A stretch of DNA of 63,852 bases, filler included, from Hausera hauseri (Eukaryota): assembly GCA_046269625.1 (NCBI GenBank). It is 12 parts of 12 records of this genome, joined end to end, with 100 filler letters (N's around TTAATTAATTAA, not from the genome) between each part and the next. Parts side by side here need not be neighbours in the genome. Positions count along the whole stretch, not along the records: positions 39,135 to 43,398 come from JBJURY010669440.1; 11 more parts are not named here. One strand, given 5' to 3'. The notes below the pieces were generated by a model, which was given only the letters and a program-made list of their open reading frames with translations, searched no databases and had not been told where the DNA came from. Every line of letters begins with the position of its first letter. Positions within the stretch are counted from its first letter, which is position 1. Positions 1,643-63,852 of this stretch are shown here, piece by piece. The translations under genes and the position numbers were made by a program.

Positions 1643-4600
1643 GTGCAATGCCATTGGATTATGCAAAGATATTATGGAATTAAACATGATGCACGTCAAT
1701 ATTATTTGTGCCCGGAATGTAGAATTGCAAATGGTTCTTCTTATTTGGAATTCTATGAGCAACATGGTGAACATTTAAAACAATTTCTTTCAGTTAGCAA
1801 GAAACAAATATTTCAGTCAATTATATCACAAAATCAATCATCTCATGAACAAATTGATAAATATTATTCATTAAAATACAATGGAACTTTATACTATATA
1901 TGTCCTATTTGCAAAACTGGAGATATAGTTCATTTTTCTAATTTCTATAAACATCATAAGGATCATTTAGTGAAATTTCAAAACCAGAAAAAGAAAGACA
2001 TTTTAATATCATATCTTATGAGTCAGAAAACTTTACAAGCGTCATCATCAAATCTTCAACTGCTGTCCAATTCAAGTCAAATACAACCTTCAACACCTAA
2101 ACCATCGAGTAATAACAGAAACAAACGACAGTCACAGATAGATTTAATAAGTACCAATAAAACAGCGAGAAAAAGAATAGCTGATAAACATGCTATGAGC
2201 AAAAAAGTTACATTATTTTTTATTCATGCCGATGATGAAGATAAAAGTATTGCGGAATTTCTTGAAAATAACAAACCGGAAATAAGAGGTATAATTGAAG
2301 ACGAATTACAAAGGCTTAACTCAATCAAAATCAATTTTTTTCTGGAGGCCAGATACACTAACGTTGATGGGGAGATTTCTCGACAGGCGTTCAAAACATT
2401 CTGCAAGGTCGTTTTGATGGATACAGATATCAGTATATTTATTGAAACTGAAAGTCACAAACTAATCAATGAAGCTGATGAAAGTGAGTCGAAGAAAAGT
2501 GGTTGGTCTCTATCAGATATCAGAGGAATAAATATCAGAATCAACAAATATAGCCCAATTCGAGGATCTTCATTCATACCGTTACCAGATTGGATAGAAA
2601 ATACAAAGTCGTGTGTAAATGTCCAAAACTATTACGACAACCAGTGTTTCAAGTACGCCATATTAACAAAACTCGTGATCGATCAGAATATTGGTCATAC
2701 TTATCGGTTAAAAAAATATGAAAAAATTCAACATTCATATGATTTTGCGTGCATTCCGTATCCACCAAATATGCACGATATTAGGAAATTTGAGAAAATT
2801 AATAGAATATCTATTAATATATTTGCTGTCGACGAAAACAACAAACTTTATCCATTAAAAGTCTGTAAGAAAGAACAAGATGACCATAGAGACATTCTTT
2901 TGCTCATTAATAAAGTGTCAAATCATTTCATATACATTAGAGATTTTGAAAAACTTGTGGGATCTCAAGTAACAAGAAACGAGCATAGAATTAATGTCTG
3001 CAAGAGATGTCTATTTCACTTTAGAGATCAGTCAAAATTGCTGGAGCACAAACTGTACTGCAACAGTAAACAAGTTACTCGACCAGAATTTCCAAAAGAA
3101 GACTTTATACAGTTCAAGGAGTATGAAAAATTGATTCGAGTGCCAGTCGTAATCTACTGCGACTTTGAATCAATTCTCAAACCAGTCGATACATGCAATC
3201 CGAGGAATGACATGTCGAGCACTACAATCACACATTTTCATGAACCAATGTCGTTTTGCATGTTTGCAAAAGGATACAATCAAGTACCTTATCTATATAG
3301 AGGACCAGATTCAGCATTCATGTTTATGAAAGAGTTAGAAAAAATTGCAACAGAAATAGAAGTAATGGTCGACAAACCAATGTAAATTTCTAAAACCGAA
3401 GCTGATCAACATGAACAAGCAGAAATGTGCTACCTTTGCAGAAACAATTTTACAGAAGGCAATTACAAAGTTCACGATCACTGCCACTTTACTGGCCAAT
3501 ATCGAGGTGCTGCCTGCAATAATTGCAATCTGAGATGCAAGCGAGTTCGATTCATACCAGTAATATTCCATAATTTATCGGAGTACGATTCACACTTTTT
3601 CATTCGTGAATTGGGTAATACAAAGGGTAGAATATCCGTAATACCACATAATGAAGAACGGTACATTACGTTCTCAAAATATTTTGGAAGAAAGGAGCTA
3701 CGATTCATTGACAGTTTCAAGTTTATGAGCAGTAGCTTGGACGAGTTGGTCAGAAATCTCTCCGACGATGCATTCAACGAAACAACAAAATACTTCAACA
3801 ACCAGAAATTGTTCAGTCTAGTTCGAAGGAAAGGAGTGTTTTCATATGAATACATTAGTGGATGGAACAAACTGGAAGAAACATCGCTGCCGTCAAAAGA
3901 ATGTTTTTTCAGCTCTCTTTATCAATTAGATATATCAGATGAAGACTACAAACATGCTCAAAATGTTTGGCGTGCATTTCGATGTGAAAACATCGGTGAG
4001 TATAGTGACATCTATTTGAAAACAGATGTACTATTACTCACTGATGTGTTTGAGCGATTCCGTGATGTCACGATGGCGTCGCATAAAGTAGATCCAGCAC
4101 ATTATTTTACGGCGCCGGGAATGTCATGGAGTGCCATGCTCAAAAAGACCGGAATTAAACTGGAAATAATTAAAGATTATAATATGGTACTAATGTTGGA
4201 GCATGGAATAAGAGGTGGACTTTGTCAGGTTGTTTATCGGTACGCAGAAGCAAATAATAAGCATATGATGGACAAATACGATGCAATCCAGGAATCGACG
4301 TATATAACTTATTTGGACGCAAACAACTTATATGGCTGGGCCATGTCCTTTTACCTTCCGTATGGCGATTTCAAATGGACTGAATGGAAATCAGAAGATT
4401 TTGACGAAATACTGAACATTAGTGCGACAGCATCAACTGGTTATATTTTATAAGTTGATGTTGAATATTCTGATTATTTACATGCATCACATGTACAATT
4501 ACCATTTCTCCCGGAAACAGTTAATCCACCAGGCAGTAAAATAAACAAATTAATCCCACACCTTGGAAATCGGCAACGGTATGTTGTTCATTACCGGTAT

Positions 4601-5432
4601 CTAAAACAGGCCATGCAAAGCGGACTAAAAATTCAAAAAATCCGCAGGGTTATTCAATTAAGTCAGTCGGCTTGGTTACAGAAACACAAAACTTAATACC
4701 AATTTACGGACAATGTCTACAAATACATTTGAGAAGGACCAGTATAAATTATACAACAATGTTATGTTCGGAAAAACGATGGAGAACATCAGAAAACGAA
4801 CACACATTGAAATGGCCAGTGAATGGAAACGAGCGAAGAAACACATCGCAAAACCACGTTTCCTGCACTCACAAATTTATACTGAAAATCTCGTGAGTAT
4901 CCATCTTCTAAAAACTCACCTGGAATTCAATAAACCAATATATGTCGGCCTCTCTATGCTGGATCAGAGCAAGATACTCATGTATGATTTTAATTACAAT
5001 ATCATGATACTAAAATTTGGTCTTCAACAACTACAAATTCTGTACATGGATACAGACTCATTCATGTACAGAATTAAGTCAGCTGACTTATTCGTAGACT
5101 TGCAGGAATTGGGGGAGCATATAGACACAAGCGACTATCTACCGGATCATCCGAATTACTCAGCACAAAATAAAAAGATTTTGGGGAAATTCAAGGATGA
5201 AGTGAAGGGTGAAATCATAACAGGATTTATAGGTCTCCGTCCAAAAATGTATGCTGTGGATGTCGGCGGTGTTGTGAAAAAGCGTGAAATAGGCGTACAA
5301 AAAACAGTACTCAAACAACAGATTACATTTGATGATTACATCAGTATATTAACAGCCGATAAATCAAAAATCAGTACAATGCATGCAATCGGGTCTCATG
5401 AACATGTAATAACAACGGTCGAACTCAGAAAA
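1643..5432 (+). pseudogene. Polinton/Maverick-type protein-primed family B DNA polymerase with an endonuclease VII/HNH-like insert; cut by the contig end
   Basis: Exonuclease motifs YCDFES, FHNLSEYDSHF and YLKTDVLLL; VHDHCHFTGQYRGAACNNCNL; polymerase motifs YLDANNLYGWAM, KLYNNVMFGKT and YMDTDS. In-frame TAA at 3383-3385 and 4451-4453; frameshift near 4690. Confidence 0.93.
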
Positions 5433-7560: not shown

Positions 7561-10500
7561 TTATAGTATATGAGCTGTAGTCCGAATTCCATCCGATTGT
7601 ATTACGCGTTTATCATCATATTTGTTCAAACTGATCTTCTGAATTTGAACAGTGGATATTACATGAGCTTCAGATCTAATGGCATGCATTCTACTAACCA
7701 TCTTTTGATCACTATAGAGAGCTGTAAAATAATCGTTAAATGTTAGTTGATTTTGTACAACTGCCCGTTGAACACCTTTGGCACGTTTTTTAATTACACC
7801 ACCGTTAACATCTAGCGCGTACATCTTCGGTCGAAGACCAACGAATCGTGTAATTATGGCACTCTTCATCTCATCTTTGAATTTCCCCAAACCTTTTTGT
7901 TGTCAGTGGAATAATTTGGATGGTTTTGAAGATAGTCACTAGTGACCATGAAACGTTCAATTTCTTTGAAATCGATAAATATGTCCTTTGATTGTATTTG
8001 ATACATTAATGAATCAGTATTCATGTAGAGAAGTTGTAAGTTGCTCAAGTTAAAAGTCGGTATTATGATGTCATAATGGAATTCATACATTAGGATTTTA
8101 CTCGAATCCAAAATGCACATTCCTACGTATATTGGTTTATTGAATTTCAATTATGTCTTCGACAGTTGAATACTTACAAGATTTTCCGAATAAATCTGTA
8201 AGTTTAAAAGTTCGATTTGGCTGTGAGTTTCTTTGCCCGTTTCCACTCATTCACTAATTCAATTTTCTGCCGATTTCTTATATTTTCCACCGTTTTTCCG
8301 AATACTGCATTGTTGTACAGTTTAAATGGGTCCTTTTCGAAATTATTCATAGCCAATGTTCGCCGATCGGTATTAAATTTGATATATGATTGGAGCCATC
8401 GTGACTGACTGAATTGAATTATCCGGTGGATTTTCTGAACTTTCAATCCATGACGTATAGCCTGCTGAAGAAACTGATAGTAAACAATAGTAAACAATCC
8501 GATTTCCTAAATGAGGAATTAATTTTTTCATTTTTCCTTTACTGTTTCCGAGCACTGTAGTTGCTTCTGGAAGGAATGTAAATTGATCATGCTCTTGATG
8601 TAAGTTTTTTGGATACTCTACATCTACGTCAAATATGTACCCAGTAGATGAGGTGGAACTGATGTTTAAAATATCTCTTTCCATATCACCGGTCCATGTT
8701 ACCCACTGAAAATCCCCATATGGTAAATAATGTGACATGGCCCACCCATACAAATTATTTGCGTCCAGATAAGTTATGAATGATGAATCCTTATTTTTGT
8801 CGTAATCGGTTTTCATATACTTATTATTCGCTTCAGCATAACGATGGACAACCTGACACAATCCTCCACGAATTCCTCTCTCCAGCATAAGTATCATATC
8901 ATAATCCTTTATAATTTCCAATTTCACTTGGGTCTTCTTTAACATTGCACTCCAGGCCATTCCAGGTGCAGTAAAATAATGCGCTGGATCAACTTTGTGT
9001 GATGACATCGTTACATCACGGAATCTTTCAAATATGTCTGTGAGCAGCAAAACGTCGGTTTTTAAATACACATCGCTGTACTCACCAAGATTTCGACATG
9101 CAAATGCACGCCATACGTTTTCAGCATGTTGGTAATCTTCGTCGGAAATATCTGATTGATAAAGTATACTGGAAAAGCATTGTTTCGGAGGGAGTATTAT
9201 TTCTTCCAACTTATCCCACCCTGTAATGTACTCATATGGAAATATGCCTTTTCTCTTGACCAAGTTGAACTGGTGACTATCAGGAAATTGTTTTCTGGTT
9301 TCGATGAATCCATCTAATGGCAGGTTCTTGGCTAATTCATCGAGACTGCTGCTCATGAATTTAAAACTATCGATAAATCGTAACTCCATCCGTCCCACAC
9401 GTTTCGTAAACGTTATATATCTTTCTTGATTGTGGGGTATAAGGGTTATCCATCCTTTTGATTTACCGAGTTTCCTAATGAAAAAATGTGAGTCATAACC
9501 CGACAAATTGTGAAAAATAATTGGAATAAACCGGACTCGTTTGCATCTCAAGTTACAGTTTTTACATGCAGGACCGCGGTATTTTTCTGAATAATGACAA
9601 TGGTCGTGTACTTTTTAATTGTCATCGCTGAACGGATTCTCACACAAATAGCATGTTTCCGCCATGATATGTTGTTGCTCTGAATCCCTTGATAATGGCT
9701 CCATTAGCTGGTCTGTCATTTCTCCAATGTCTCTAGCAATACACGCCAACTGCTTCATCATTTGTACCACTGCGTTTGGTCCTCTGTACAGAAGCGGATC
9801 TTCATTTCCGTATCACTTCACCAACAAACAGAAAGACATAGGTTTATGAATATTAATTTCAGTTGAGATTGATCTACTGTTCTGTGGATTACATGTGTGT
9901 ACCGGTCTGAGTATTGCTTCAAAGTCGCAGTAGATGACTACCGGGATACGGATAGTTTTTTCATACTCTCTAAATTTAATGTTATCTTCATCGGGAAATT
10001 CGGGTCTCAGCAGTTGTTTCTGGTAAAGACAATGCATTTTGTGTTCATCCATCTTTATTTTTTCTCCGTAGTGTGTTAAGCACCTTTTGCAGACATAAAT
10101 CCTATGATCATTTCTCGATATTTGTGATACAGCTAGTCTCTCAAAGTTTATGATGTAAACAAAATGCTTACGTTTTTCGTCATTATCACTAAGCAGAAGT
10201 AGGTCTCTGTTCATTATTTGCTTCATCACACACCTTCATTGGGTATATTTTATTCAATTCATCTACTCCGAATACATTGATGGACATGTTGTTGATCTTC
10301 TCGAACTTTTTGATATCATGCATATTCGGTGGGAATTTGATACAAGAAAAGTCATAGGAGTGCTGAACATTTTCATATTTATTTGCTCGCTGTGGCTTGC
10401 TGACATTTTGATCCATGAGAATTTTTGTAAGTATGGAATACTTGAAGCACAAATTATCATGGAAATTTTGGACATTGATACAGGACTTTGTGTTTTTTAT

Positions 10501-10992
10501 CCAATGTGGTAGGGGAATATACGACGATCCACCGATTGGAGAATATTTGTTGATCCTGATACTGAGGTTAATGACTGACTCCAACGTCCATCCACTTTTT
10601 TTCGATTCACTTTCATCAGCTTCATGAATTATTTTCGTACTTGCGTTATTTATGAATGAGCTGATATCCGTACCTAGCAATACCGCTTTGCTTGTTGTTT
10701 TGTATGCTTTCTGTACGACTTCACCATTTATGTTGGTGTAGGAAGCTTTCAGGAAAAAATTTACTTTTATTGCATTGAGTTGTTGTAATGAATCCTCCAG
10801 TATTTCACTGATTTCTCTTTGAACATTCTCCAGAAACTGTACAATATTTCGGGAATCTGTGTTGTTTTCTGGATAGATATTGAAAACCTGCACCTTACGC
10901 TTCATTGCATGCTGTGTTGCAGACCGATTTCGTGTTGTTTTGTTCAGAATAGGTGTTGGTGCTACCACTTTTCGTTTTCCCCTGCTTGTCAA
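7561..10992 (-). pseudogene. Second protein-primed PolB, paralogous to 1643-5432, with several frameshifts
   Basis: Collinear ORF pieces 10189-10992, 9813-10229, 8373-9551, 8204-8497, 7866-8150 and 7561-7890. Motifs YCDFEA, FHNLSGYDSHF, YLDANNLYGWAM and KLYNNAVFGKT; motif C is mutated to YMNTDS. Confidence 0.93.
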
Positions 10993-11364
10993 TGATCCTA
11001 CTCATACAATTCTAAAAAATTAAGAATTCTTAATAAAAATAACAATAAAAATAATTTATAAAACAAAAATAACAAATAGTAAAACAAATAATTAATGTTT
11101 TAAATTCTCTATTACTAATCAATGACGTATTTCCAATCAGTGATAAATTCACTTCAAATATCCTAACTGTACGCTAACGGTAATTCATTCGATAAATGAA
11201 TCAGACAAATTAATTAATTGTCACGTCTACTGACTGATTTTTCCATCCACTCGACAAACAGGAAATACGCAATCGACTATAAGCAACCAGTGAAAACAAC
11301 GCACGCAGTACACAGTTGTTTACAATACACCTCAGCAATAACCGAACAACTCACCGAGAATAGC

Positions 11365-14371: not shown

Positions 14372-15682
14372 CTTGCAAACAGACGAATGTTTGAACATTG
14401 CGAAGGTCAAAGAGATCTGTAAGAAGTTTTTACAGAATTAAAGCTGGCTGGTGCAGTTTTATGATGCGGAAATAAACGAGTCGGGATTGTGGAAGGAGTT
14501 GGAAGTTTATATTCCCAATATTGTCAATTGGTAATTGAAGAATCTGACAAAAACTTCAACAGACAGTAGCAAAAAGACCGTTGTTGATATTGAAGAAAAT
14601 ATATGGTCACTATGCTATGGCGTGAAATGTAAAATCGATGTTACACTTCAGTGTAATTATAGAAAAAAATCTTTAATTCCGTTGAAATTAAAAATAGGAA
14701 AAACATCTTTCTCAAACGATCATTCTGTACAAGTTTTGTTGTATATAACGATGCTCAATGAATTGGAGGGATGTGTTAATCAAGGTCAATTATTGTACAT
14801 AAAAGATTGCCAGGAAAAGACGATTGTCTCACAAAGACCTACTACAAAAAGTCTCATTCAGTTACGAAACGAATTGGCAAGGTGTTTGGATAAGTTTGTG
14901 ACAATCAATTTTGCCTATAATCATTGTCTACCTCCAGTTATAAATAATGAGAGATTTTGTTCTAAATGTGAATATTTGTCATTATGTGGTTTGTTCTCCA
15001 GATTATCACATTCTCGAATAACGAAGTGCGATTCCGAACTCATTAAAGGTTCTATCGTAGCCTTATCAGACAAAGAAATTCGTTTCTTTCATTCGTGGTC
15101 TTCGTTGATTATATTAGAATATTTTGCTGAAAATAAAACAGAGGACATTGTCAAAAATATTGTATTGCAAAAATTCGACAAGTGCGTTCGAAATGTCTTG
15201 TTTGAATCTTCTTCTCATGATGGTGTTAATCTGACGATTAATTTCAAATTTTCAGCCGAGTATTTGCCTAAATTTCCGGATGGAAACCCATTAATTGTGA
15301 GTACTGATGATGGTCGTAGAGTTGCTATGTTGATAGCATTTATTGTCGGGCCTGTTACTAGTCATTGCTTATTGGTTACTTCAGATAAACCATTGCCATG
15401 TTCTAGATATACTCCTTTGAGATTTGATTTGTATCACTCCATAAAAATGTCCTTAAATCTGTCGGTGTTGGGATGTCTTATGTCGGAAAATAAGATCAGT
15501 CAGCATTTAAGGAAACTAATTATCTTTGGCGAAAATCCGAAATCAAACTCTACGCTGTCTCGATCTTTATTACAAAAGATCAAGCTGGTTGTACAAAAAT
15601 GCAATAAAGACCAAAGGAATGCCATAGTAACTGCGCTTTTGTCAAATGGTTACACGTTAGTCAAAGGATATCCAGGAACGGA
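14372..15682 (+). pseudogene. DNA2: DNA2 nuclease/helicase fragment, intronless and degenerate
   Basis: DIEENIWSLCYGVKCKIDVT, PLKLKIGK (canonical PLELKTGK), HSVQVLLY, IQLRNELA, Fe-S-type CSKCEYLSLC, and NKDQRNAI...LVKGYPGT broken inside Walker A. Stop codons upstream. Confidence 0.85.
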
Positions 15683-17399
15683 AGACTACATGTATAGTTA
15701 CTTTGATTGAAGATTTTCATATTATGGAGAATATTTTAAAGAAAGTAAATATGGACGTTACATCTATGTATTTAAATGGAAGTGGTATTCGTTCGTCATT
15801 CGACGGGGAAATCAAGGATTTACTGGCCCAATTTCCACGGAACAAATGTCAGGTACCACTTAGACCATTTACGACCAATGTGGACAAATCCACGCGGTAC
15901 CAATGGGTGAAACTAACGCACAATGGGGTAAGTTATGATGTTGTGTATCATTTTGTCGGCATCCTTTTTTATACATCTTTTAAGGATAAATTTTCTTCCA
16001 TGATATTACCATATTTTTTCCTACAGCTGTACAGTCGATTTTTGTTACTACACACAATGTCCGAACCGCGATAGCTACTTACCTACTACTTCACACGAAG
16101 CCACAGAAATCATTATATTCCGTCATTCCCTTTTTCCCCTGTAACTATCGTGATGAAACCTTTTACGGATTTTCAGTCTATGTTAGTACGAAATAACCCA
16201 CTGTATTCTTATATTGTCTTATCCGTATTGCTATCTACCGATGTCTTACAATCATTGCCAACAATCTTTACCTTGTACTATCGTGATAATACGTTCAAGT
16301 ATTACGTTAATGACTAGCTTCGTCCCTTGTTGTCGCTTCGGAACGGATCAATGGCGCACTTTCATAGTTTTCGGGGTACTCCAGTCCCCAAGATTGGAAT
16401 TCACCATTTTATGAAAACATCAGCTCTGTCAACACTTCTGAACATATTAGAATATTGGGGCATTATTACAAACGATAAACTCCGTACATCTCTTCTCCGT
16501 ACATTCTTCACGCTGTTTTTGAACTTCAACTCCGGAAATTTCATTTCTGACTTTCTTACAGTATCACCTTTTGTTGTCGTTAAAATTTCGTTACTCTTTG
16601 AACCGGTGTACCACATTTTTTGCATGGAGGGCTACGTCGTTCCGCTTACTTTACACCTGTACACATTCCACAAAATATTTTACAATTATGGCCCAGTTGT
16701 TAGCTTTCTACCAACATATTTTGTACGTGACGTTGATACTCATAGCGGGCGTTTTTTTGATGACATTGAAAGGTACTCCAAGTTTACAACATTTTGTTCC
16801 ATACTTATTCACTTTTACCCATGTTGGAGTTTTACTACCATGGAAACTTTCGTTAATGCCAAGGAAATTGTGATACCTTCAGACATATTTTATCATCATC
16901 TTGTTTCGCTTTCCACTACCTGGGCTGATACGCCGTTTTGCACCCGTACACACCTAATTTGGAATAAATTGCTCCTTTTTTGACATTTCATTTTTAAATA
17001 ACCGATACATACCTAAATCGAGGTTTATCCCTGACTAGGCCCACCCGAGAGAACTCAGTTTCCCCGGATCTGCCGGTGCGTCACAGTGACCGACTACCCA
17101 ACCGTTTATCCAATGTCAATGAGTCCCATGACTTGATGTGTTCCGTCACCGCACCAACCACTTAGGCTTACACCGACTCTTTCCTTTTTATTCTTTCTCA
17201 ATAATTACCATGTACTCACACACAGAATAACACATCTCATATATGCATCCAACTTGCACAATTATGCATTACAGGTCACCAACATCTCTGACTTTTATCT
17301 CAAATACAACAACCTACCCGTAACTAATGTCAACCTTCGTAATCTTTCTGTTCCTTCAACCTATTGTATCATCATTCACATACATATTCGCATACGTGG

Positions 17400-18757
17400 T
17401 GGAATGGATTCTTCACCACCATCGACATCACTGATAAAATTACCTCTAAAACATCATATTTTGCTTTTCACCAAAAATCGTCGACCGTCACCTAGCCATC
17501 TACTTTTATTAGCTGTACACCTTCCGTTCCGCCAACCAAATACACTTTTTTTCAGTGCACGGAGTATTTTATCAATCGCGAAAAATCCAGCCAAACCTGG
17601 CTTAGCTTTCACAAACTTTGGCTGCAGTCTAACAACATCACTGATCCGCTAAACTAAGCTCATAACCTACTTTGTCTTTTAGCGACAACTGTAAAAACGT
17701 CCATTCATGATTTCCTAGACATCTTACAGCAACCAGATTTATACACCCATCTTTACAGTGCCGTTTTAAAGCTTACCGAACCATCTATGGACTCGATAAT
17801 TCATCAGTTCTTCAAGGACAATGCTATGGAGACGCAAAAACCATCACATTTCCTTAGAACTTCACTCGTTCAACTTCAAACACTTGGCGTGACTAAACAA
17901 CATAACGCCGATCTTTTGCGACGCTACTTTCTGAACGCTTCGCCCATACAAATTTGGGCCTTATTTACTGTCGTCGAAGAATAGACGACACTTGATAAAT
18001 TTGCCGAACTGGCAGACAAAACATACGAAGTTTTGAATGTACACACCCGACCAGTCATTTCTGCAGCCATTACTACCAAAAACGCTACATTCGAACAGCA
18101 TTTAAATCAATTACGAGCCGAAAATGCGGCCCTACAAACAAAAATAAGTAATATTAACAATAAACTGAACGAGATTTCATTGACTCAATGGGGGGGTTTC
18201 ATTCGTGACCGTAACCGTTCAGTATCTCCTGGTCGTTCACCCTCAACTGTACGATCACTGATTTGCTATTTCCACGGTAGGTATGATAATAATGCACAAA
18301 AATGCCACCTACGGTGCAAATTTTATAATCAAGGATATCATACAGATAACGTCATGTGTATATATCATGCAAAATTCCGACATAATGCACGCAAATGCAT
18401 TCCTGGTTGCACTTTAAAAAACAAATCTCATCATGCAAATGACAAAAACACAAACCTCCCTTCTAACAGACGCCCTGTTTCTCCTTTTTCAAAAAACTCA
18501 TTTCGCCGCCAGTACTCATGGCAGAGTCTGGCAAAGGCAACTTCTTTAATACTGCCTGCCGACACTCTTCTTTTGCAATCTTTACACTAAAGGCTTCGAT
18601 AACAACACCAATAACTCAATTCATATATTTCCTCATCGATACAGGCGCTACGGTTTCTTCGCTACCACTCACTTTCCCTGTACAAAATTCACCAATTAAA
18701 GCTAAATCGTTATTGACGGCTTCAGGAGAACCTTTAGGCATTTCCGGTACGTCTAAA
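17400..18757 (+). mobile_element. Degenerate Gypsy (CsRn1/Kabuki-like) gag-protease fragment
   Basis: QKPSHFLR...LLRRYFL...AELADK gag pattern; two CxY/IxxH-type knuckles (ICYFHGRYDNNAQKCHLRC, MCIYHAKFRHNARKCIPGC); protease FLIDTGATVS. Confidence 0.8.
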
Positions 18758-19155
18758 AGTAGGGAGGAAATGTGCTTTCGGTCCCACCCGGACGGGGGGG
18801 TAATCGATCACTCGGTTTTGCACATATGCCGGTAGATAGTGCACACTGTGCACTGCCGATCCACAGAGTGCCTAGCAACGGTGCCGCTAGGCAAGGTTCC
18901 TATGCACATTTTGCACTTTTCATTTATCGATCGCTGCACAGTGACTATTGATCGAATCGATCGGGACAAAGTGGTAATCGATAGACCACATCGAGATGCA
19001 TCGATTCGTGCACAGTGCAAGTGTGTAGCACATGTGCAAGTGTGCAAAACTCAATAATATTGGATTTTCGACATTTTAAAAATCGATCATTAACACTCGG
19101 GACCGGGTGCAATCAGTAGTGCACGTGATGTTGTATGTGAATGTGCAATTAGAAT
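18758..19155 (+). repeat. Palindrome-rich (GTGCAC/ATCGAT) repeat that interrupts the Gypsy protease; homologous to 48570-48687
   Basis: gggtaatcgat...ttttgcacat(a/g)tgccg...gatagtgcacactgtgcac...cgatccaca(g/a)agtgcc is shared between the two contigs. Confidence 0.85.
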
Positions 19156-34051: not shown

Positions 34052-35330
34052 TCAAATAAATAACGCCGCACCGTAAGTTTTGTGTTTCAGGTAATTTCTT
34101 GTGGGAAAAATGCAGAGAAAAGTTTGCATGGTCTTAAATCGCCAATTTGGAAATACGTGTTTGATACTTAACAGAGTCACATGGGGATTTATAATCGAAA
34201 CAGTTTTATTATTCACGACTCCAACAAAACCTCGTTTATATGCGTCATACTGGGTTTTACAATCAACGAGAGAAAAGACAATAATTTCTAGTTGATTATT
34301 TTCGTCCGTTTGTGACTTTACTATTAAACATACAAGCTCGCCAACTGTTTTCACCGATGCTAGAAATGTAGAATGTTTTCCTTCCAATTGATCATCATGC
34401 AGAAAAAGGTTTATATGTATGGTCGTATTGTACAATGAAGCATGATCGGGCATCGTATAGAATAAAGCATTCCGTACTTCAAACGGACTATTCTTCTCAA
34501 CACTGCCATACTGTTCAATCGTACTAAATCCCTTGTTTATAGACAAGGTAGATACACATGACGTTTGCGCATGATATGTGTGATCCTGTACTAATTTCAC
34601 ATCTACGGCCACATAAAACAGAAATACCACGTCGTCAATATAAAATGATGAATACAATCTATTAGAATAATCCAATTTTCTCCATGATATAATGTTTATC
34701 ATATTACTCACAAAATCTCGTAAAGAATAACTGAATACTTCCATAAATTGCGTACTATTCAAATGATTATTATTATTAAGTATAATTCGTATGTGACTAT
34801 TTGTTACGACTAAATTTGTAACTTTTACGGGATAGTTGAAGAAGTTTAAAATCTGTTCCGTTAGTATTCGAATATTACCAATGGTAAAATGAGATTTGGA
34901 TGTGAACCCACATACAGGAAATAGCTTTTCACTGACGTCTTGATTTTGACAAATGACAAACAGTAGACACATAGTTAAAGGTGTACTGAAATCATTAATC
35001 GCTTTATTTTCAAGGAAATCTAGAGATTGGAATATAGTTTTGAAAAATGGTTTAAGAAGGTTTGTGAACACATAATTAAATATCACACAACGAATGGTAT
35101 GGACTAAACGTTTATATGCACGTAAGGCAAGTCCAAAACCACTTTTGTGACCATGTAAACAAGATTCAGGTATTTTCCTACTTACAAAACCAAGGGAAGG
35201 CGATGTTGTGTCAACTATATAATGGGCAAAGGAGTAGTGGAAAAGTGGGTAAGAAATATTGTGAATAAAAAATGTATGAAAAAAATAATCGCCGACCGAA
35301 CAATGCATAATGGAGAATCTCACCTCGTCA
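34052..35330 (-). CDS. Unidentified ~425-aa open frame continuing in frame from the SSRP1 Rtt106-like domain
   Basis: Long stop-free frame in AT-rich DNA. It is not the acidic/HMG tail expected for SSRP1. Confidence 0.4.
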
Positions 35331-36600
35331 CTGCTCAAAGCGTATTTTTTTGCTTTTATAAAGTCTATAAATCTGGAATACTCGCTCTTGTCTATTCCAC
35401 TGGGCGTATGTACCGCACCATTCTGAGTTTCGGTATCAGAATCGAATGACCGTTGCGCAACTGAGGCTCGGGATAGGTTTACGACTGATATTTCTACGCC
35501 ACGCAAACTAATACATGGCTTCGAGAAGAATATGAAACTTTTTTTGATAGGGTTCAGGAAACTAGACAGTTTTGTAAATACCAGAAATCGATCTGGTCTT
35601 AGTCTTGCTTTCAAATTTGTTGGGTACTGTCAACCTTAGATTGTACAGATTCTTGAACAATTTTGTCGTAATTTCGTATGTCAGTCCTGATAATCTGTGT
35701 AAAATACTCTCATTATAATTCTCTTTTAAAAAATCCTCCTTGCACTGTAACTCCACTGTTTCCTCGTTTTCATTATTAAGCGACAATATAATGTAATAAC
35801 ATTTAGTTTGGTCATGTGTTAACAGAAGGTTAACTTGCATCACAAAGAATATGTGCCTTTCGTCCAAATATGGCAACAAGAAAAACCGTACAAAATGATC
35901 TTTTGACACACTGTAATAATATATTTTACTACGCAAATGTATGAAATTTTGACACAGTTTGATAATGTATCGCTTGCGAGGTTGTAGGCAGTGCATTTTC
36001 TTCAAAGTAACCAGAGAATCCGCCTAATTATTTACGGTGTTTGTCTCGCTTTTTACGCGCAAGTACAAATCCTCCATAATATTTTCTTTCTGTGAAACTG
36101 TTGCAAATTGCCTTACACAAATAGGAAATGCATCTTCGGTAGATTGAAATTGTATTGTTAATTGGTTCTTCGACAGATTGACATTAATCACATCTTGGAA
36201 ATTTATGTCAAAACAACGCAGATTGTTAACTAGAAATTTTATATATTCGTCGTTAATGTTTGGTTTCCTCTCATTCCGGCCTACCACACAATTATCAATA
36301 TTGACCACAGAAATTTCATAATTTACTTGAAAAAATTTCGAAACTTTGTCACACTCATTTTCCGAAAATCCATCAAAATAAACTCGTTTTTTATTGAGAA
36401 ATTTTAAGCACAGTCCGAATCCTCTAGCACGAAAGAACCATTCTGCAGAACGAATTTGTTTGGACTCAAAGTGACCGCTTTTCCCGGTTTTCTCATTTTT
36501 ATAATAAATTGTCGGCAGAGTTAATTTGACTTTCATTTCGGAACACGATCCAAGCTGTTCGTAATAAAGATTGTCAAGTACATACGTATTCTGCACTTGT
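35330..36600 (-). pseudogene. SSRP1: SSRP1/POB3 (FACT subunit) divergent copy covering the PH and Rtt106-like domains
   Basis: YKNEKTGK...YFDGFSENECDKVSKFF; CLQPRKRY...RFFLLPYLDERHIFFV...SGLTYE...TVPNKF; FIFFSKP...QRSFD...IDKSEYSRFIDFIKAK. In-frame TAG at 36024-36026 and a frameshift near 35570. Confidence 0.88.
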
Positions 36601-39134: not shown

Positions 39135-40220
39135 CATCAGGGAATTCGGCGGGATCCTTTATTATTCCGTCCGATATTGCTGAGAGATATATCCTGTTTC
39201 TGATTATTTCTCTTAATTTTACAGCCATTTAGAATTATTTCACGGTACATTGTATAAATATTCTTTTGATGAAAATGATAAACAAAATCCCACTAATTAT
39301 CAAAGTATAGATGTCGTTCCACTTCTGATTTATCAATTTTTCTTTTTGCATCAACTATTATAGTTGTTGACAAAAATATTCTTTTAGAGTACGTTCGGTA
39401 TATTACCCGGTTACATCTCTTTGCATCACTTTTTATTTTGAATCTCATCCTTTTGTTTGAGTCTTCAGAGTATACAATAGTTGGAATCTCAACCATATAT
39501 GACACTCGATCTAATCTGCTTTTCGATATTTTTTTCTTATACATTTGTCCTTCGGTTTCATTAAACTTTCCGCATATTCAATGGCATTGATATTTATCGA
39601 CTTCGTATCCAATGTTGATTCACCTGTATCACATTTTTTGTTGTAATAATCACACTTAAGGAATATCATAATTTTTCCTTATTCCAATTCGAACACGGCA
39701 TAATATTCTCTCAACTCAATTTGATAACCCTCGATAGCTAATACATTATCCAGAATTTCCCCATTTATATTGTAATATTCTCCCTTACAATATCCTGTCT
39801 TATCAATTGCTCCAGCTACAAAAATTCTTTTGTTAATAACTTTTCCTTTTTGAGCCTTTAACCGAATACTTCCGATATTAATTTGTTTTGTTACAAAAGC
39901 CTCGATACTTACTTCAAACAAAGTAGCAGGTTCTATTATGGCTGAGTTTTTATACCAGTAACCACAAATAAAGTGAACGTGATTCTTTCGCACGAAACAT
40001 TCTATAACTTTAGTTTTCGCAAATATCGATTCTTGATAAACGTGATATTCCTTACCGAATGTTGTAGTTAGCGATGCCGGATTGGCATATGTACATTTCT
40101 CTATGTCTAGCAATAAGTATATCGGACCTTCCTTTTCCTGACTATAGTAATATGCGATGACAGAAAATGTTTTCTGAATAAAATTGAATAACAGAAGTAC
40201 ATGTAGGACTTTAATTACCC
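39135..40220 (-). pseudogene. Chuvirus-like envelope glycoprotein, N-terminal half (element D)
   Basis: Hydrophobic WVIKVLHVLLLFNLF, then SVIAY...LLDIEKC...YQES...KVIECFV...FICG...AGAIDKTGYCKG...KCDYYNKKCDTGES, a Cys pattern like chuviral-type G proteins. Confidence 0.72.
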
Positions 40221-42100
40221 AAAATAGATCAAGATCTCGCTATTGGTTCTGCTGTCTTTCTTGTTCGCGTGATGGAAAATTTTCTGTTTATCTCTGGACT
40301 GCCGATTCTTGTATTGTTATTTGAATCAGGCTACTGATCCATCCAACTGTACATTTTAACCATCCTTCTACATTAGCTTTTAATGATCTTATGGCTATTT
40401 CTATATTTCTCTATATCTCCTTTTGGTTTGGATTTATACCATTCATCACCATTACTTTATACAGGGGGTACGATACAGTCGTTACAATTTTACTTCTAAA
40501 TATATTCGTTCCTATCATTCTGGAAAGTATACCTCTTCCTGGTAACTTGTTTATTTTCTCATCCGTATGAATATCTGCAAACTGCTCACTAATTTTTGCT
40601 ATTTCATTCCCAATGATCTGCATTAGTGAGTCTGGTATTTGCAAATTTGTATTGAACTAAATGAATGCATTGTGCATTCTTACTAATAAGGTTTTCAGCA
40701 TTGTTATCAATGAGACATTACTTGCATCATGATCGCCTTCAGTTGTTAGCAATCTTCGGACAACTTCATCACCTCTTGCTTTTCTGCCTTTCAATTTATG
40801 CAGCTTTGCCGTTCATTTATGTCCATCTCGATTCCTTTTATCGATCTGAATCTGTTCTGATATAGGAATATTTGCTTAAATTCCTGTTTGTTGAACTTCA
40901 TAATTTACTTCAGTTCTTGCATACCTTTCTGTCTGACTTCAATGAAAATTTCTTCTAATATTTGTTGTTCGGTTTATCTAAAAGACATGTAAATCGGATT
41001 ATATCTTTTTCCCACATACCTACTTTGTACATGGTTTCATAATCTCCCAACATCCGTCCGCGGAAAGTAAACATGAATTACTTCATTAATATTGTTTCAG
41101 TGCAGCTATTATATCGAACGACTTCAGTCTCAAAGCATGAAAATATTGATTATATTGTTGAAGGGTAACCACTACTATGGTTTTCACTAACCATTCTTAT
41201 TCTATCTGTGTTTCAATAAATTATATATCGTACAGAATTTTGGTGTGAACTCTTGTTAGCAGCGTATATTAACAACAGGTCCAATAAATTTGGAAACTGT
41301 TGATGTCTAACTGTAGGTAATAACAACATTTTGAGATCCTATCTGAATTGAGTGCCTTCATTTAATTCTTGATTTGCGGAAATCGTCATTTTTCATACTA
41401 TTTCTATGCCATCTTGGTCCAAATCTATAGGTGAAGTTTTCAACTGTTGAGGTAATTCTTTCACTTTCTTATTCTTTTTAGCTTCTCGACTTGGGCACTT
41501 TTTTCACTACCTGAGGAAGGAGATGACTCAGGAGTTCCTAATTCCTCTTCGTATATAAGAGGTTTGTTTTTTCTTTTAATCTTTTCATTTCGACATCTGA
41601 TTCTGATGCAGGGTTCCTTTTAGGCCTGTATACCAGAGCGATGATTGAATTATTATTATTCATTTTGTGCCACTCTTCGCAAATTTATTGCTCTTTTAAC
41701 TCTATATATAGCTGCTTTAGCTACTTTATACTCATAATCTTTTATCATATTTGTTTTACTTTCCTTCAGCTTAGCTCTAATCTTTTCTTGGAGCTTTTCT
41801 ATTGCATCTCTGAATCTGTATTTATAATTTCGTGCTCATTATCTGTATCGGATATATTACCAATTATATCAACACTTTTCTTTTTCAAGCTTGACTGTCC
41901 TTGACTGGACCAGGAACGCGCCATGTATCTTACAGGCAAAGCATAGTGGTTGTCATCCTGATTAACCATGGCTTCTCCATTGTGGACTTTTGAGTTTGAC
42001 TCTGAAAAGTAACATTCTTCTGCTGTCGCTGAGGCTGATTCTGCAATTTTTGAACTGGCGTTTTAAAATATTTCTTTTGGTGAAAATTTTTCACTTTCTT
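40220..42100 (-). pseudogene. Degenerate ORF1 of element D (gag position; identity unresolved)
   Basis: Purine-rich coding-like strand with scattered stops between the PBS and env. Charged N-terminal part; no CCHC knuckle seen. Confidence 0.5.
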
Positions 42101-42269
42101 GTCATCATTTTTAGGAGGTTTTTTGCATTCTCAAGCCTTTCGTAATTAACTTCTATATTTCTGGCTTCACTAACAGCTTTTTGTCAGTGTCAGGGTCAGT
42201 AACGATAATTTAATTTTAGATTTCTTTTTTAGGAATCTGTACCTTAAAGCAGGCCTTGACTCGATCCCA

Positions 42270-43080
42270 TAACCTCGTGGCGCCAAACAATAAAACAACA
42301 CGGAGACAACAAAATAAATGAATAAAACCGGATAATTGTTGGAACATTTATTTTGATAACAATCGCCATCCGCGGAGGCATACGACTCCTCGGTAGTGGA
42401 ACGAGACGATCCGAACCTGCGAAGTCGACGTGGACGGGCTCGAATGTCGTCCGAGCTGGAGCTTGACGTCCGTGTCCGCGATGCTTCGATGGTTCGGCGG
42501 CATGGTATTAACTGACTCTCCGAGGGAGCCAATAATTCGTAAAGGCAATCGCTTGTCGCCATCAGTCTAAGGAAGACTGGCAGGAAAACCGACGAGTCAA
42601 AAAGGCGTTAATTTTCCCCGTCCTCGTAGAACCGATGAAGCGTGTTCGTCGGTAAGGCGTAGGGGTCGTATTGCCCTAGACGGGTCAAGTGCCGTACGAA
42701 ACGGCTCCGTTGTAGGAGCTCCCGTACCGTTAGAAAGTCCAAATAAGACCGGTACGGGGCTCGCCTGTTTGTACCGCGACGGCGTTTTCCGCTGGAGACC
42801 GTATTCCGTTTGGTGATGTGTCGCCGTGCATCTGGTCGACCCTGGTCCGGTGAAGCGGTGCGGCTGTCGGCGTTATTGTCCGCCTTGGCATGTACCGGTC
42901 GGGGTATCTTGAGAATGCGATACCCCGTAATCGGCATAGTCTTTCTGCACTGAGGGTGGTTTTCGGTTGCGTTGCTGTGTCGGCCGGAATGGCCTTTGTA
43001 TCGTTCCGGGCGATTGGGTCGCCGGGTTTTGTCGTTTGGCTGAGCTTAATTGGGGGATTTTTTTTCCAAAAGGCATCTCT
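42270..43080 (-). mobile_element. Putative 5' LTR and primer-binding site of element D
   Basis: GC-rich non-coding block. The minus strand shows AATAAA near 42350, then a GT-rich tract, then TGGCGCCACGAGG (about 42273-42285). The outer LTR boundary is uncertain. Confidence 0.6.
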
Positions 43081-43189
43081 GTGGCATTTATCTACCAAAC
43101 ATTGTTCATATTTCAAAGAGTCAGGGTTTAAGAAAGTGAAAATAATCAACACCATCTTGTCTTGGATTTACTGAAAAAAGTGAACAAAC

Positions 43190-43398
43190 TATCAATGTTT
43201 CCATGTTTTTTCCCTCTAGGCAATGAGAGATCAATTCTGGGCATTTCAAATTTGTCAGCTTTGACTTTTGGACCTTGAAAATGTACGTTTCCTTCTGGAA
43301 TTTTAACGCTGGGTAAGTCGATGTCTACAGAGGGAACATTGAATCCAGCCATTTTACCTTCACCATCAAAAGCAACGTCAGCTTCCAGTGTTCCTTGT
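43190..43398 (-). CDS. AHNAK-family repeat fragment (vertebrate-type)
   Basis: FNVPSVDIDLPSVKIPEGNVHFQGPKVKADKFEMPRIDLSLP is a typical AHNAK/periaxin repeat. Confidence 0.8.
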
Positions 43399-52840: not shown

Positions 52841-53295
52841 TGGGATGTCTTCTGGTGCTACCGTTATTTGGTAGTAGGCTTTTTCGAGATCTATGGTTGA
52901 ATAAATCGTAGTCTTGTGTAAAAAATGCAATATATCTTTAATCAAAGGTAGAGGATAAGCGTCCATGGTAGTGACGTTATTTAGTTGGCGATAATCGCCT
53001 CATGGATAGAATGTGCAACCTTTTTTCGGGACGACGTGGAGTGGTGATGCCCACGGTGATTTTGATCATCTTATTATTCCAGCTTGCTCGAGTGCGGAGA
53101 ATTCCGCTTGGACTGCCTGTTGACGGCGTAGTGAAAGTGTGCGGAGTTTTTGCCTAACGGGACTGGGGTTTTCTGTGATGATATGATGTAACGTTGTTAG
53201 CCGGTCAAAATTCTGGGTCTTTTTTAATTGTATGGAAACAAGACTTGACTAAATATTATTGCATTTCCTGGCTAAGTGTAGTGAAGATTGTTGTC
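52841..53295 (-). mobile_element. Separate CsRn1-like Gypsy RT N-terminal fragment abutting the env of element C
   Basis: AEFSALEQAGIIR*SKSPWASPLHVVPKK...GDYRQLNNVTTMDAYPLP...IDLEKAYYQITVAPEDIPK. Confidence 0.85.
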
Positions 53296-53859
53296 NNNNN
53301 NNNNNCAGTGTCTTGCGTGGATTTAGTATGAGAAATGGTAGAATTCGGGCAGTAGGTAGAAAGCAGTGCATGAGATCAGACCATTACCTCCCCCCAGGGA
53401 AGGAAGGAAGTCAATGAGAAAAGAACACGTCATCGAAGATGGAAAAACAGGCCAATGAGAGGAGGACAAGTCATCGTGGGGGGGGTGAGAAAAACTGACC
53501 AATTGGAGAGCAGTATTCGGTAAAACAAACATTATGTGATTTGGTCGTGGTGTCACTATTCCCACCCCTAGAACAAAGCGATCTGTTCGTGGTTTNNNNN
53601 NNNNNNNNNNNNNNNNNNNNNNNNNNNNNNNNNNNNNNNTTAATTAATTAANNNNNNNNNNNNNNNNNNNNNNNNNNNNNNNNNNNNNNNNNNNNCTGAA
53701 GACTCTGAAATTTCACTTCGACAAATTCAACAAAATACAGGCATAACAAAAAGTACGGCCTAAAGAATCCACATTTAATGCGGCAAGAACGGTCTCAATA
53801 CAAATTCAAAATTTATAGACTGGTATATTAAACGGCCGAGTACTAGCTCCAATACAGCT

Positions 53860-60248: not shown

Positions 60249-62361
60249 GTATGTAACGAAAACAGTCTCTTTAAAACCGAAGCACGATACTTGGTTCGTC
60301 GTAAAGATCCTGATCTCTGGTGTGAAGTTTTGGGCGACAGCAATGAGTACAGACGTCAGCTAATTGACCAAGTCGTCCAAACAGCGTTGTCCGAAACTCA
60401 AGATCCCGAAGAAATCTCCATTGCTGTCAAAGCATTTATGGCCGCCGATATGCCCAATGAATTGATTGAATTGCTGGAAAAGATCGTTTTGGATAATTCC
60501 GTGTTTAGTGATCACCGGAACTTACAGAACCTGTTGATTTTGACGGCAATTAAAGCCGACAAAACGAGAGTTATGGAATATATCAATAGACTGGACAATT
60601 ACGATGCACCGGACATTGCAAATATCGCCATCACCAATGATCTATTCGAAGAAGCATTTGCTATTTTCAAGAAATTCGAAGTAAACACGTCAGCTATTCA
60701 AGTGTTGATTGACAACATAAAAAATTTGGATCGTGCGTACGAATTCGCCGAAAGGTGCAATGAACCAGGTGTCTGGAGTCAACTTGCATTGGCCCAATTG
60801 AATTCTGGGTACATCAAGGAAGCCGTTGATTCATATCTGAAAGCAGGAGACCCCAGTCAATACATTAAGGTTGTTGAATGTGGCAAAAAAGATGGTAACT
60901 ATGAAGACCTCGTTCGATATTTGCAAATGGCTCGCAAGAAAGCACGGGAAACATTCATTGAAACCGAATTGGCATATGCGTATTCAAAAACGAATAGACT
61001 AGCCGATCTGGAAGAATTTATATCCGGTCCAAATCACGCTAACATAACTCAAGTTGCCGATCGGTGTTTCGACGAGAAATTATACGAGGCAGCAAAATTA
61101 CTGTACAACAACGTGTCAAATTACGCTCGTCTGGCGATCACTCTCGTTCATCTCGGTGAATATCAGGCTGCCGTCGATTCAGCACGGAAGGCAAATTCTA
61201 CACGAACGTGGAAAGAAGTTTGTTTCGCATGTGTGGATAACGAGGAATTCCGATTAGCACAAATGTCCGGCATGCATATCGTTGTTCATGCTGATGAATT
61301 GGAAGACCTCATCAATTACTATCAAGATCGCGGGTTTTTTGAGGAACTCATTGCGCTGTTGGAGGCCGGATTGGGTCTGGAACGAGCTCACATGGGAATG
61401 TTCACCGAATTGGCTATCCTCTATTCCAAATATAAACCAGCAAAAATGAGAGAACATTTGGAGTTGTTCTGGAGTCGAGTGAACATTCCAAAGGTGTTGC
61501 GTGCTGCTGAACAGGCACATCTATGGTCAGAATTAGTATTTTTGTACGACAAATACGAGGAATACGACAACGCTATCATTACAATGATGAATCATCCAAC
61601 GGAGGCATGGAAAGAGAATCATTTCAAGGACATAATCACAAAAGTCGCCAACATCGAGCTATATTACAAGGCCATCGGATTCTATCTGAACAACAAACCG
61701 CTGTTACTTAACGATCTTCTGAACGTGCTCATCCCTCGACTAGATCACACACGAACTGTCAATTATTTCAGCAAAGTTGGCCAGATTCCACTGGTGAAAC
61801 CGTACTTGCGTCACGTGCAACAACACAACAACAAATCTGTCAATGAGGCTCTCAACACTCTGCTGATCGATGAGGAAGACTATGAGGGTCTGCGAGCGTC
61901 CATTGAGAATTATCACAATTTCGATAACATCTCTCTGGCTCAAAAACTCGAGAAACACGAACTGATCGAATTCCGTCGAATTGCAGCGTTCCTGTACAAA
62001 GGTAACAATCGATACAAACAGAGTATCGATTTGTGTAAGAGGGACAAATTGTACAAAGATGCAATGCAATACGCCAGTGAATCACGAGAAATTGATGCTG
62101 CCGAGGAGTTGTTAAACTGGTTCTTATCGGAGGGTCTGTACGACTGTTTTGCTGCCTGTCTGTTTACGTGTTACGATTTGCTACGGCCAGATGTCGTTTT
62201 GGAATTGTCATGGCGGTATAACATCATGGATTTTGCAATGCCATTCATCATTCAAGTCATGAAGGAATACATTGAGAAAGTTGATAAACTGGAGAAGGCC
62301 GATGCTATTCGGACAACGAACGAGGAAAAAGCCGAGTTGGAACACAAACCAATAATGATAA
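60249..62361 (+). CDS. CLTC: Clathrin heavy chain, large internal exon
   Basis: [24 protein letters not shown]...[14 protein letters not shown]...[21 protein letters not shown]...[12 protein letters not shown]. Acceptor tttcgtag ends at 60248; donor GTGAGT starts at 62362. Confidence 0.97.
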
Positions 62362-63852
62362 GTGAGTAGTTTGATTATTCGGTTAACGGAATTTGCGATT
62401 TTAGGATAACTTACCCTTTCCTCCTTATTTTACACTGTTAATATTTATATGTATACAAAACTCTGTAATTTATTTATTTGATACAATTTTGAATATTTCG
62501 ATCAAATAAAAATATTATTTAGGAATTTTGTGGATTATTAAATTTTGGCTGTCAAGTAGAATAGTGTACCAAATTTTTCACAATTTTTATTGAAATATTT
62601 TTTATACTACAAAATCCAGTATTCTCAGATATTTTATTAATAAATTTCTCTACATTTTCATTGTTTAAATACATTATTTAAATGAATTCCAATAGAATTT
62701 TAAATATTTGACCTTGGTTACTGTTTTACAAAATTATGTCTCGTAATATAACACTAATTTTCTTACGATTCATCCAAGTCTACTAATTAAGTGTTGAATT
62801 GTAAACAGTACATTTGAGGAAAAATGGACAGAAAAATGTATGTCGACATTCTGAATGAAAGTCTTCGAGCGTCGGACAAAAAATGAAAATAGAAAAGAAA
62901 TTCGTGCTACAACAAGACAAAGCTAGCAAAGTCGAACGGGAATGTTTAAGGAAATCGAAAACTAAAATAGCTTTGCGAAACATCAACCAATGCAGAAATG
63001 TTGAAATGGATTTCATCATGAATATTCAGTTGAGAATTAACCGATGAATGATGATTATGTGAACAGAATGAGCCCATTTTTAAAACCAATGTATTGACCT
63101 GCAACATTACTCATTGGAAATTTCTCTTAATGTTTACTGATAATCGTTTATCGATTTAAAATTTTCATACACACTATTTCTTGTTCTTTGTGTGTATATA
63201 TTTGCTTAAATTTTGAACTGAAGTTTCACCTTTATTAACTTTCCAACAAAAATACTAAAAATAGCGCGCAAGTAATTACTCAAAATTAATACATTTAAAC
63301 AAATCGATACTAAGATATCCTCTAGCAAACAATATTGAAAACGTCAGATTCGACGTTAGGTATGTACACAATGTAACTGGCATGGTTTTCAGTGGTTTTC
63401 AAGTACTATATGAAAAGTATTTTACAAATGCACACATTGCATTTTCCTGTAGACTTTCCGAAATTTAATGTCTCGGTTTGATTTTTTCTGATCACCGTGT
63501 ATATTTTATGAATATAAAATTTCACACGTGAGAGAGAGGAATCGTCACTACCGAACTAAAATTTTACAAATTTGCAATTTCAGTATGGAAGCCATTTTCG
63601 ATTTGTGATAAATAATCAACATGATTAGTAGTGTTATTGCCAAATTTTATAAAAATGCATTGACCCCTATTCGAATACTTCTCTACTAAGTGAAATTGAA
63701 TTGACTGAAAACGAAATTGAACTGGGCATGGTGTATTAAAAGGTCTAATTGTCGTCTGGTTATTTAAAACTGGCATCCTTTTTGAATCCGGTGCTTATCT
63801 CATAAAGACCCGTTTAGATGCCAGTAAAAATAAATTTCAATTCAAAAATAAT

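Follow-up and report, generated by a model that had tools for sequence, protein, structure and literature searches.

Contig 8 of the window carries what is very probably the dead 5′ half of an LTR retroelement, likely Ty3/gypsy, of the Burro or GAG-ENV-POL type, with remnants of gag, a ubiquitin-like domain (UBL), a domain predicted to have the Bcl-2 fold, and a fusion glycoprotein of chuvirus/gB type (env, or G), in that order. The window, the whole stretch of DNA analysed here (63,852 nucleotides, filler included), is made up of 12 short contigs with N spacers between them, and the finding occupies all of contig 8 (Table 1). Because this layout has already been described in planarian flatworms, the element is probably one more instance of it, in a more compact form, and not a captured virus nucleoprotein.

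Read 5′ to 3′ on the minus strand, contig 8 holds a GC- and CpG-rich block (about 43100-42400), a decayed coding region of about 2.0 kb (42227-40240), a hydrophobic stretch and the N-terminus of a glycoprotein. An earlier note on this DNA, made from the sequence alone, had described an ORF1 followed by env with no pol in between, and this description held: the decayed coding sequence, the hydrophobic stretch (from 40233), the N-terminus of a glycoprotein of negative-strand-virus type (PF24664) and the quoted peptides are all present. No pol was found between ORF1 and env, and neither pol nor a second LTR lies on the contig. A Pfam search of the three whole minus-strand frames of contig 8 returned 0 families, and Rfam gave three matches, all at chance level. 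A single frame is kept from 40911 to 39610, spanning the Bcl-2-like domain, the signal stretch and G, and its 434 codons contain seven stops. With the capsid nearly all lost, the zinc knuckle split by a frameshift and about 13 frame changes along the decayed coding region, this copy is dead; it is a front half only, and is unable to perform any of the functions proposed below. In run X1, possibly the window's own source, the element family occurs in numerous, diverged copies: 3241 X1 contigs align to it, 68 of them at a likeness of at least 99% and 1886 less than 90% alike, and no X1 contig spans the whole stretch.

Table 1. Features of contig 8, in minus-strand order, with the evidence for each.
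Feature	Position	Strand	Evidence or remark
Contig 8	39135-43398	minus-strand features	4264 bases
Putative 5′ LTR or leader, unpaired, ends not fixed	42286..43080	-	GC and CpG content, X1 coverage
Second primer-binding-site candidate	42550..42561	-	9/12 bases, same Ser_GCU tRNA end, ungapped
AATAAA, then G/T-rich tract	42347..42352	-	would fit R/U5
Preferred primer-binding-site candidate, tRNA-Ser(GCU)-like, 2-base insertion	42272..42285	-	TGGCG start at 42285
End-of-capsid remnant (Gag)	42121..42227	-	matches P0001 153-188 and P0002 154-189, 48-71%
Broken CCHC zinc knuckle (nucleocapsid)	41910..41952	-	P0001 194-220 matched in two frames
Gag tail, charged, low-complexity, frameshifted	41476..41906	-	52-69% to P0001 212-363
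Conserved helical domain, about 75 aa	41180..41428	-	local profile, common to 7 relatives
Ubiquitin/SUMO-like domain, frameshifted	41003..41175	-	local profile matches window, E 4.7e-25 and 6e-4
Bcl-2-like domain, two in-frame stops	40306..40710	-	profile and predicted fold
Signal-peptide-like internal hydrophobic stretch, before glycoprotein	40162..40239	-	hydropathy
Chuvirus/gB-type fusion glycoprotein (env), N-terminal half, cut by contig end	39135..40161	-	PF24664

Relatives were searched among 1.84 billion representatives, which gave 1369 matches at E 0.001, and the best 150 of these were examined. The env piece of the window found P0001 (73% identity, E 9.8e-85), an unbroken natural relative of 1130 aa in one ORF, which is about 45-75% identical to contig 8 and colinear with it from residue 153 (42227) to residue 1124 (39242). 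Repairing ORF1 from multiple copies, as the earlier note had suggested, was unnecessary once one long natural relative had been found. A single-sequence model of P0001 was unusable (pLDDT 34). In one frame, P0001 encodes a capsid, a CCHC knuckle, a small helical domain, a ubiquitin-like domain, a Bcl-2-like domain, a signal peptide and the chuvirus/gB-type glycoprotein; about 790 aa separate the start of Gag from env, and P0001, like contig 8, ends within G.

The P0001 capsid (residues 18-180) matches the Arc/gypsy capsid (dArc2, E 0.0068), a six-sequence capsid profile matches dArc1 (E 4.9e-5), and the CCHC knuckle (residues 197-212) matches PF00098 with a score that exceeds the cut-off (E 2.5e-4). 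Through P0001, the end of a capsid and a split CCHC can be seen on contig 8, where no gag hallmark and no knuckle had been reported. P0001 residues 1-152 have no match on contig 8, and the match begins about 60 bases past the primer-site candidate, so that most of the capsid was probably deleted in this copy. The suggestion that ORF1 is a highly diverged gag was thus right as to gag and wrong as to divergence, since the gag of the contig-8 copy is mostly deleted. In four relatives the linker carries an RGRP motif, which we take to be AT-hook-like.

The conserved helical domain that follows the Gag tail matched nothing in the PDB significantly and no Pfam family consistently; a TFIIS-N/LEDGF-IBD-like identity was considered and is unsupported (best PDB E 0.34). 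For the UBL, our profile (A2) matched the ubiquilin-2 UBL in the PDB (E 6e-5) together with many SUMO and ubiquitin chains, and the Pfam ubiquitin family matched P0001 (E 0.031) and P0016 (E 0.0046). The helical-plus-UBL module is found in 7 of the best 150 relatives (3 seeds, with P0010 a borderline eighth) and in the window at E 4.7e-25. In the ESM Atlas, the leads for residues 380-570 were all below 0.9, with two ubiquitin/SUMO-like clusters at 0.75, and residues 600-785 had no match. The UBL and the Bcl-2-like domain, both in frame with env, make up the rest of ORF1 and had been missed by the earlier note; the ORF1 peptide quoted there falls inside the Bcl-2-like domain.

Profile and fold searches together predict that this last piece of ORF1 is a Bcl-2-like domain; each score is modest, and all agree. 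The Bcl-2-side profile (A1) matched Bcl-xL in the PDB over BH1-BH2 (E 1.8e-5), and all 60 of the matches listed belong to the Bcl-2 family. A local Bcl-2-like profile was matched by 8 of the best 150 relatives (6 seeds) and by the window (E 3.3e-31). Pfam PF00452 fell at the same place in five relatives (best E 7.7e-5; P0001, E 0.055). No Pfam score for Bcl-2 or ubiquitin reached its curated cut-off, and the pieces from the window itself had no Pfam match for either. No homolog was found with A1 among proteins of 3437-5000 aa. When the window's domain was modeled with X at its two stops, it formed six helices (pLDDT 59, pTM 0.46). Bcl-2 folds rank first in three fold searches, with modest scores. 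Foldseek against the PDB gave Bcl-2 proteins in 44 of 44 matches listed, none of them at E 0.001 or better, and in VIA the first 26 of 50 entries were Bcl-2-fold chains (Z 7.5-5.6, rmsd about 4, 102-123 residues), the best Z of 7.5 being under the level that the tool calls safe. The G and W of the BH2 motif W-x4-GGW are invariant in all nine aligned sequences, with one substitution in the window. The BH1 motif NWGR is degenerate, though the region aligns to the BH1 of Bcl-xL, and BH3 binding is therefore not assured.

Our best guess for the role of the Bcl-2-like piece, which we hold to be somewhat better than an even bet, is that it would hold off the death of the host cell during replication of the element. 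The processing of viral polyproteins with internal signal peptides is known and forms the basis of the scheme that follows. An intact element would make a single polyprotein; its internal signal peptide would direct the glycoprotein into the ER, the Gag side and the Pol side would stay in the cytosol, and signal peptidase and the element's own protease would release the pieces. The start of the mature glycoprotein lies 50-80 residues past the Bcl-2-like piece, which may then remain membrane-bound via the signal peptide, an arrangement that would resemble tail-anchored cellular Bcl-2 proteins. On contig 8, mean hydropathy is 2.08 over 15 aa from 40233, and a similar stretch is present in seven relatives, where it lies inside the 52-79 residues separating the BH2 motif from the first conserved cysteine of the glycoprotein; given this spacing, the hydrophobic stretch could double as a Bcl-2 tail anchor.

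The same type of element could instead use its Bcl-2-fold domain to damp innate signalling, a role known for some poxvirus proteins of this fold, or merely as a structural spacer ahead of the signal peptide, and we give this reading about one chance in three. It would fit the degenerate BH1, and in VIA the vaccinia proteins B14, A52 and N1L, which we take to have the Bcl-2 fold, score within about 1-2 Z units of the apoptosis regulators. It would also fit the absence of the domain from several relatives that have gag and G, the cargo being patchy: P0005 has the UBL without the Bcl-2-like domain, and P0008, P0017 and P0025 have neither. Against it, the BH2-like W-x4-GGW is retained in relatives just 12-19% identical to the window piece, and Burro1 has another anti-apoptotic cargo, an IAP with a shown anti-apoptotic role and a shown role in stem-cell survival, according to the part of PMC13465017 that cites this work. 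For Bcl-2-like cargo itself, the passage on these elements in PMC6431247 names the blocking of cell death as a possibility to be confirmed. Survival of the host cell stays our preferred role.

The glycoprotein of contig 8 matches PF24664 twice (E 3.8e-11 and 3.5e-6), covering model positions 7-207 and 249-355 of 653, and is 60-61% identical to that of P0001, in which PF24664 begins at residue 793. In a glycoprotein tree of 29 sequences, with the shorter G matches left out, the window groups with P0001 at 100/100; 13 of the 26 inner branches are open, and the Bcl-2 carriers do not form one group (3 changes, poorly resolved). Elsewhere in the window, contigs 5, 6 and 10 carry the C-terminus of a Monjiviricetes-type glycoprotein (PF24664) followed by protease and RT, with an integrase in contig 6. 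We read these three contigs as the elements A-C of the earlier note, which had tied contig 8, its D, to them by a seven-residue env motif. The kinship extends beyond that motif, with 46 of 121 residues identical between D and C in the G overlap (E 1e-23), but the tie cannot be stretched to one element: at 38% identity, and by homology only, D and C are different families, kin rather than parts of the same element.

In an intact element, pol would follow env, as it does in relatives. Gypsy pol after env is seen there at 27-39% identity, and the relatives show a gypsy-type capsid, RNase H and an integrase with a GPY motif. P0003, the nearest relative extending past G, has the Bcl-2-like domain, G and protease in one frame, and P0010 and P0017 have CCHC, G, PR, RT, RH and IN in one frame. 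P0030 (gag-UBL) and P0003 share the same longest contig of 14848 bases and could represent the halves of a single element. Among the 154 proteins compared, no single one joins capsid, UBL, Bcl-2, G and RT, and no DNA loci of the relatives were found in viral or metagenome contigs.

Upstream of the coding sequence, the LTR and both primer sites are putative. GC content is 0.47-0.62 in the block, which is also CpG-rich, vs about 0.33 downstream, and 730 X1 contigs, many of them diverged, align over 42150-43250. X1 coverage is absent from 43038 to the contig end; because a filter drops records, the LTR end is not set from this gap. At 42285, 11 of 12 bases match the 3′ end of Ser_GCU (supplement file 2 of PMC13524379), by eye and with a 2-base gap allowed; the window contains no host tRNA genes, and the primer sites were compared with the PMC13524379 table only. 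For the LTR and primer site claimed earlier, the sequence shows the GC- and CpG-rich block and two imperfect Ser(GCU)-like sites; no second LTR copy lies among the 12 contigs of the window, and no TG...CA ends were seen in the sequence of the putative LTR.

Contig 8 might also derive from a non-autonomous gag-env element, mobilised by its relatives, so that D never had a pol. A capsid deletion immediately past the primer site and the many diverged X1 copies would suit such a derivative, and pol has not been seen for exactly this family; however, the decay runs along the whole frame, in frame changes and stops alike, as in an old dead copy, and P0003 continues past G into protease. We consider a pol-less origin improbable and keep to an element with pol after env.

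A negative-strand RNA virus as the donor of ORF1, its nucleoprotein or matrix gene having been captured along with G, can be dismissed with near certainty: the glycoprotein is of Monjiviricetes type, the window alone shows no intact gag motif and the 75-aa helical domain matches no assigned family, but the capsid and knuckle of P0001 refute the idea, the best relatives of the contig-8 G are retroelement polyproteins, and the capsid end, CCHC, linkers, helical domain, UBL and Bcl-2-like domain fill the span of ORF1, leaving no room for a viral nucleoprotein core of several hundred residues. P0001 had no nucleoprotein or matrix family in Pfam at E up to 1, and none appeared among the best 60 of 234 PDB matches or among the fold matches listed. 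The earlier note, which had raised this option, had itself named a capsid fold as the finding that would remove it, and the N-terminus of P0001 matches the Arc/gypsy capsid; with the nucleoprotein or matrix gene falls the RNA-virus/retroelement chimera built on it.

The closest published layout is that of Burro/GYPSM1, giant gypsy-like planarian elements that, as outlined in the passage of PMC6431247 devoted to them (which cites Jurka 2007 and Grohme 2018), have in turn a Gag with CCHC knuckles, a Ubi2/SUMO-like domain, a BCL2-like domain, a mononegavirus-like env in frame, and a protease. Compared with their published description, the contig-8 family shares with them the Ubi2/SUMO-like domain between Gag and the BCL2-like domain, the BCL2-like domain directly ahead of env, and an env in the gag frame (one ORF in P0001; 40911-39610 in the window). 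In contrast to Burro, P0001 is compact, has one knuckle where Burro has two or three, and gave no MATH, BIR, ankyrin or Smc Pfam match between its Gag start and env. With the giant Gag region, its MATH/Smc-type domains and the two or three knuckles missing, we file the element as Burro-like and not as Burro proper. The Gag-UBL-Bcl-2-env-pol layout is thus already in print, and the new part is the compact member. Our literature search found no paper joining Bcl-2, retrotransposon and errantivirus; compact elements of this sort may already be described in Sacco 2022, in Grohme 2018, in the Dev Cell 2026 paper on Burro1, or in their supplements.

A front end of about 790 residues lends itself to experiment far more readily than Burro's ORF of 4,873 residues, and whether the Bcl-2-like cargo of a retroelement prevents cell death could be tested directly on residues 620-760 of the natural protein P0001. 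A host other than a planarian would also widen the range of the Burro-type layout. A bolder proposal, to which we give perhaps one chance in four, is a compact Burro-type enveloped lineage in hosts other than planarians, conceivably a parasitic flatworm, that would use its env signal peptide twice, to load the fusion protein into the ER and then, after cleavage, to anchor an anti-apoptotic Bcl-2. Were this dual use true, the helical-UBL-Bcl-2 cassette would form the lineage's ancient core, and Burro's giant size would have been added later.

GAG-ENV-POL errantiviruses with an HSV/gB-type env are known from Nematoda, Bryozoa and Platyhelminthes (Chary and Hayashi, PMC13524379, citing Sacco 2022), the flatworm elements described in the relevant part of that paper being nine, from Macrostomum, Prostheceraeus and Schmidtea. 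To judge from that part, they share with the contig-8 family the glycoprotein class and the order of gag and env, and with its relatives a chuvirus-like G beside gypsy pol; in the family, Gag comes first (P0001; remnants in the window) and the gB/chuvirus-type env directly after. The words 'Bcl', 'ubiquitin', 'fused' and 'polyprotein' do not occur in the main text of PMC13524379. Troyka was rejected as a match, as it has no envelope in the account excerpted from PMC12440569. The top structural neighbours of the Bcl-2-like domain include viral Bcl-2 homologues of the same predicted fold (avipox CNP058 and FPV039, herpesvirus M11 and BHRF1, and adintovirus Bcl2), whereas the contig-8 domain lies within a retroelement polyprotein, is 5-17% identical to them and has a degenerate BH1. 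Anakin, as summarised in PMC7642597 and PMC13524379, is likewise an LTR element carrying a chuvirus-like glycoprotein, but its backbone is BEL/Pao, whereas the contig-8 relatives have the gypsy-type capsid, RNase H and GPY integrase.

Among the relatives of the element found as natural proteins by database search, P0151, P0005 and P0006 are polyproteins that carry the chuvirus/gB-type fusion glycoprotein (G) and in which protease-like sequence occurs more than once, in several copies. In P0151 (4844 aa), six such stretches are accompanied by ankyrin and C2H2 matches. Its longest contig, of 23498 bases, is also the longest contig of P0047, a relative with gag and a ubiquitin-like domain (UBL); this is probably a giant element. 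On contig 10, the 5′ side of G is truncated, and ahead of it lies an RT fragment (PF00078, E = 0.002), which is probably a nested piece of a different element.

Directly upstream of the element itself, the dead 5′ half of a probable Burro-like LTR retroelement on contig 8, the minus strand holds an open stretch that we take to resemble AHNAK/periaxin repeats; a Pfam scan of this stretch returned no match. The stretch may represent a scrap of a host gene or of vertebrate DNA sitting where the putative LTR lies, or else flank or a chimeric join.

Other features of the window
Feature	Position	Strand	Remarks
Rtt106-like (SSRP1-type) and MEIOB N-terminal OB domains	34055-35629 (contig 7)	minus	single 525-aa intronless frame
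Clathrin-like frame	60249-62369	plus	706 codons, intronless
DNA2-like gene piece	14535-18835 (contig 3)		intronless; Pfam Dna2, E 1.7e-6
G and RT fragment	52841-53300 (contig 10)	minus	
Open stretch upstream of the element	43182-43397 (contig 8)	minus	72 codons
75-base repeat, two copies 87% alike	18798-18872 (contig 3); 48613-48687 (contig 9)		near contig ends
DNA polymerase B-like gene, two copies	1598-5432; 7561-11001	plus; minus	

The frame on contig 7, which matches both the Rtt106-like domain (E = 2e-11) and the MEIOB domain (E = 2.2e-11), looks like host-gene pieces fused, and is preceded by additional frames that are presumably SSRP1-like. The likeness of the clathrin-like frame is, we assume, to clathrin heavy chain. 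The DNA2-like piece shares its contig with gag/protease-like frames of another retroelement, their motifs read by eye. Finally, a Pfam scan of one piece of the DNA polymerase B-like gene gave no useful match; its motifs are presumably those of the Maverick/adintovirus type, and the two copies are 67% alike across 3.2 kb.
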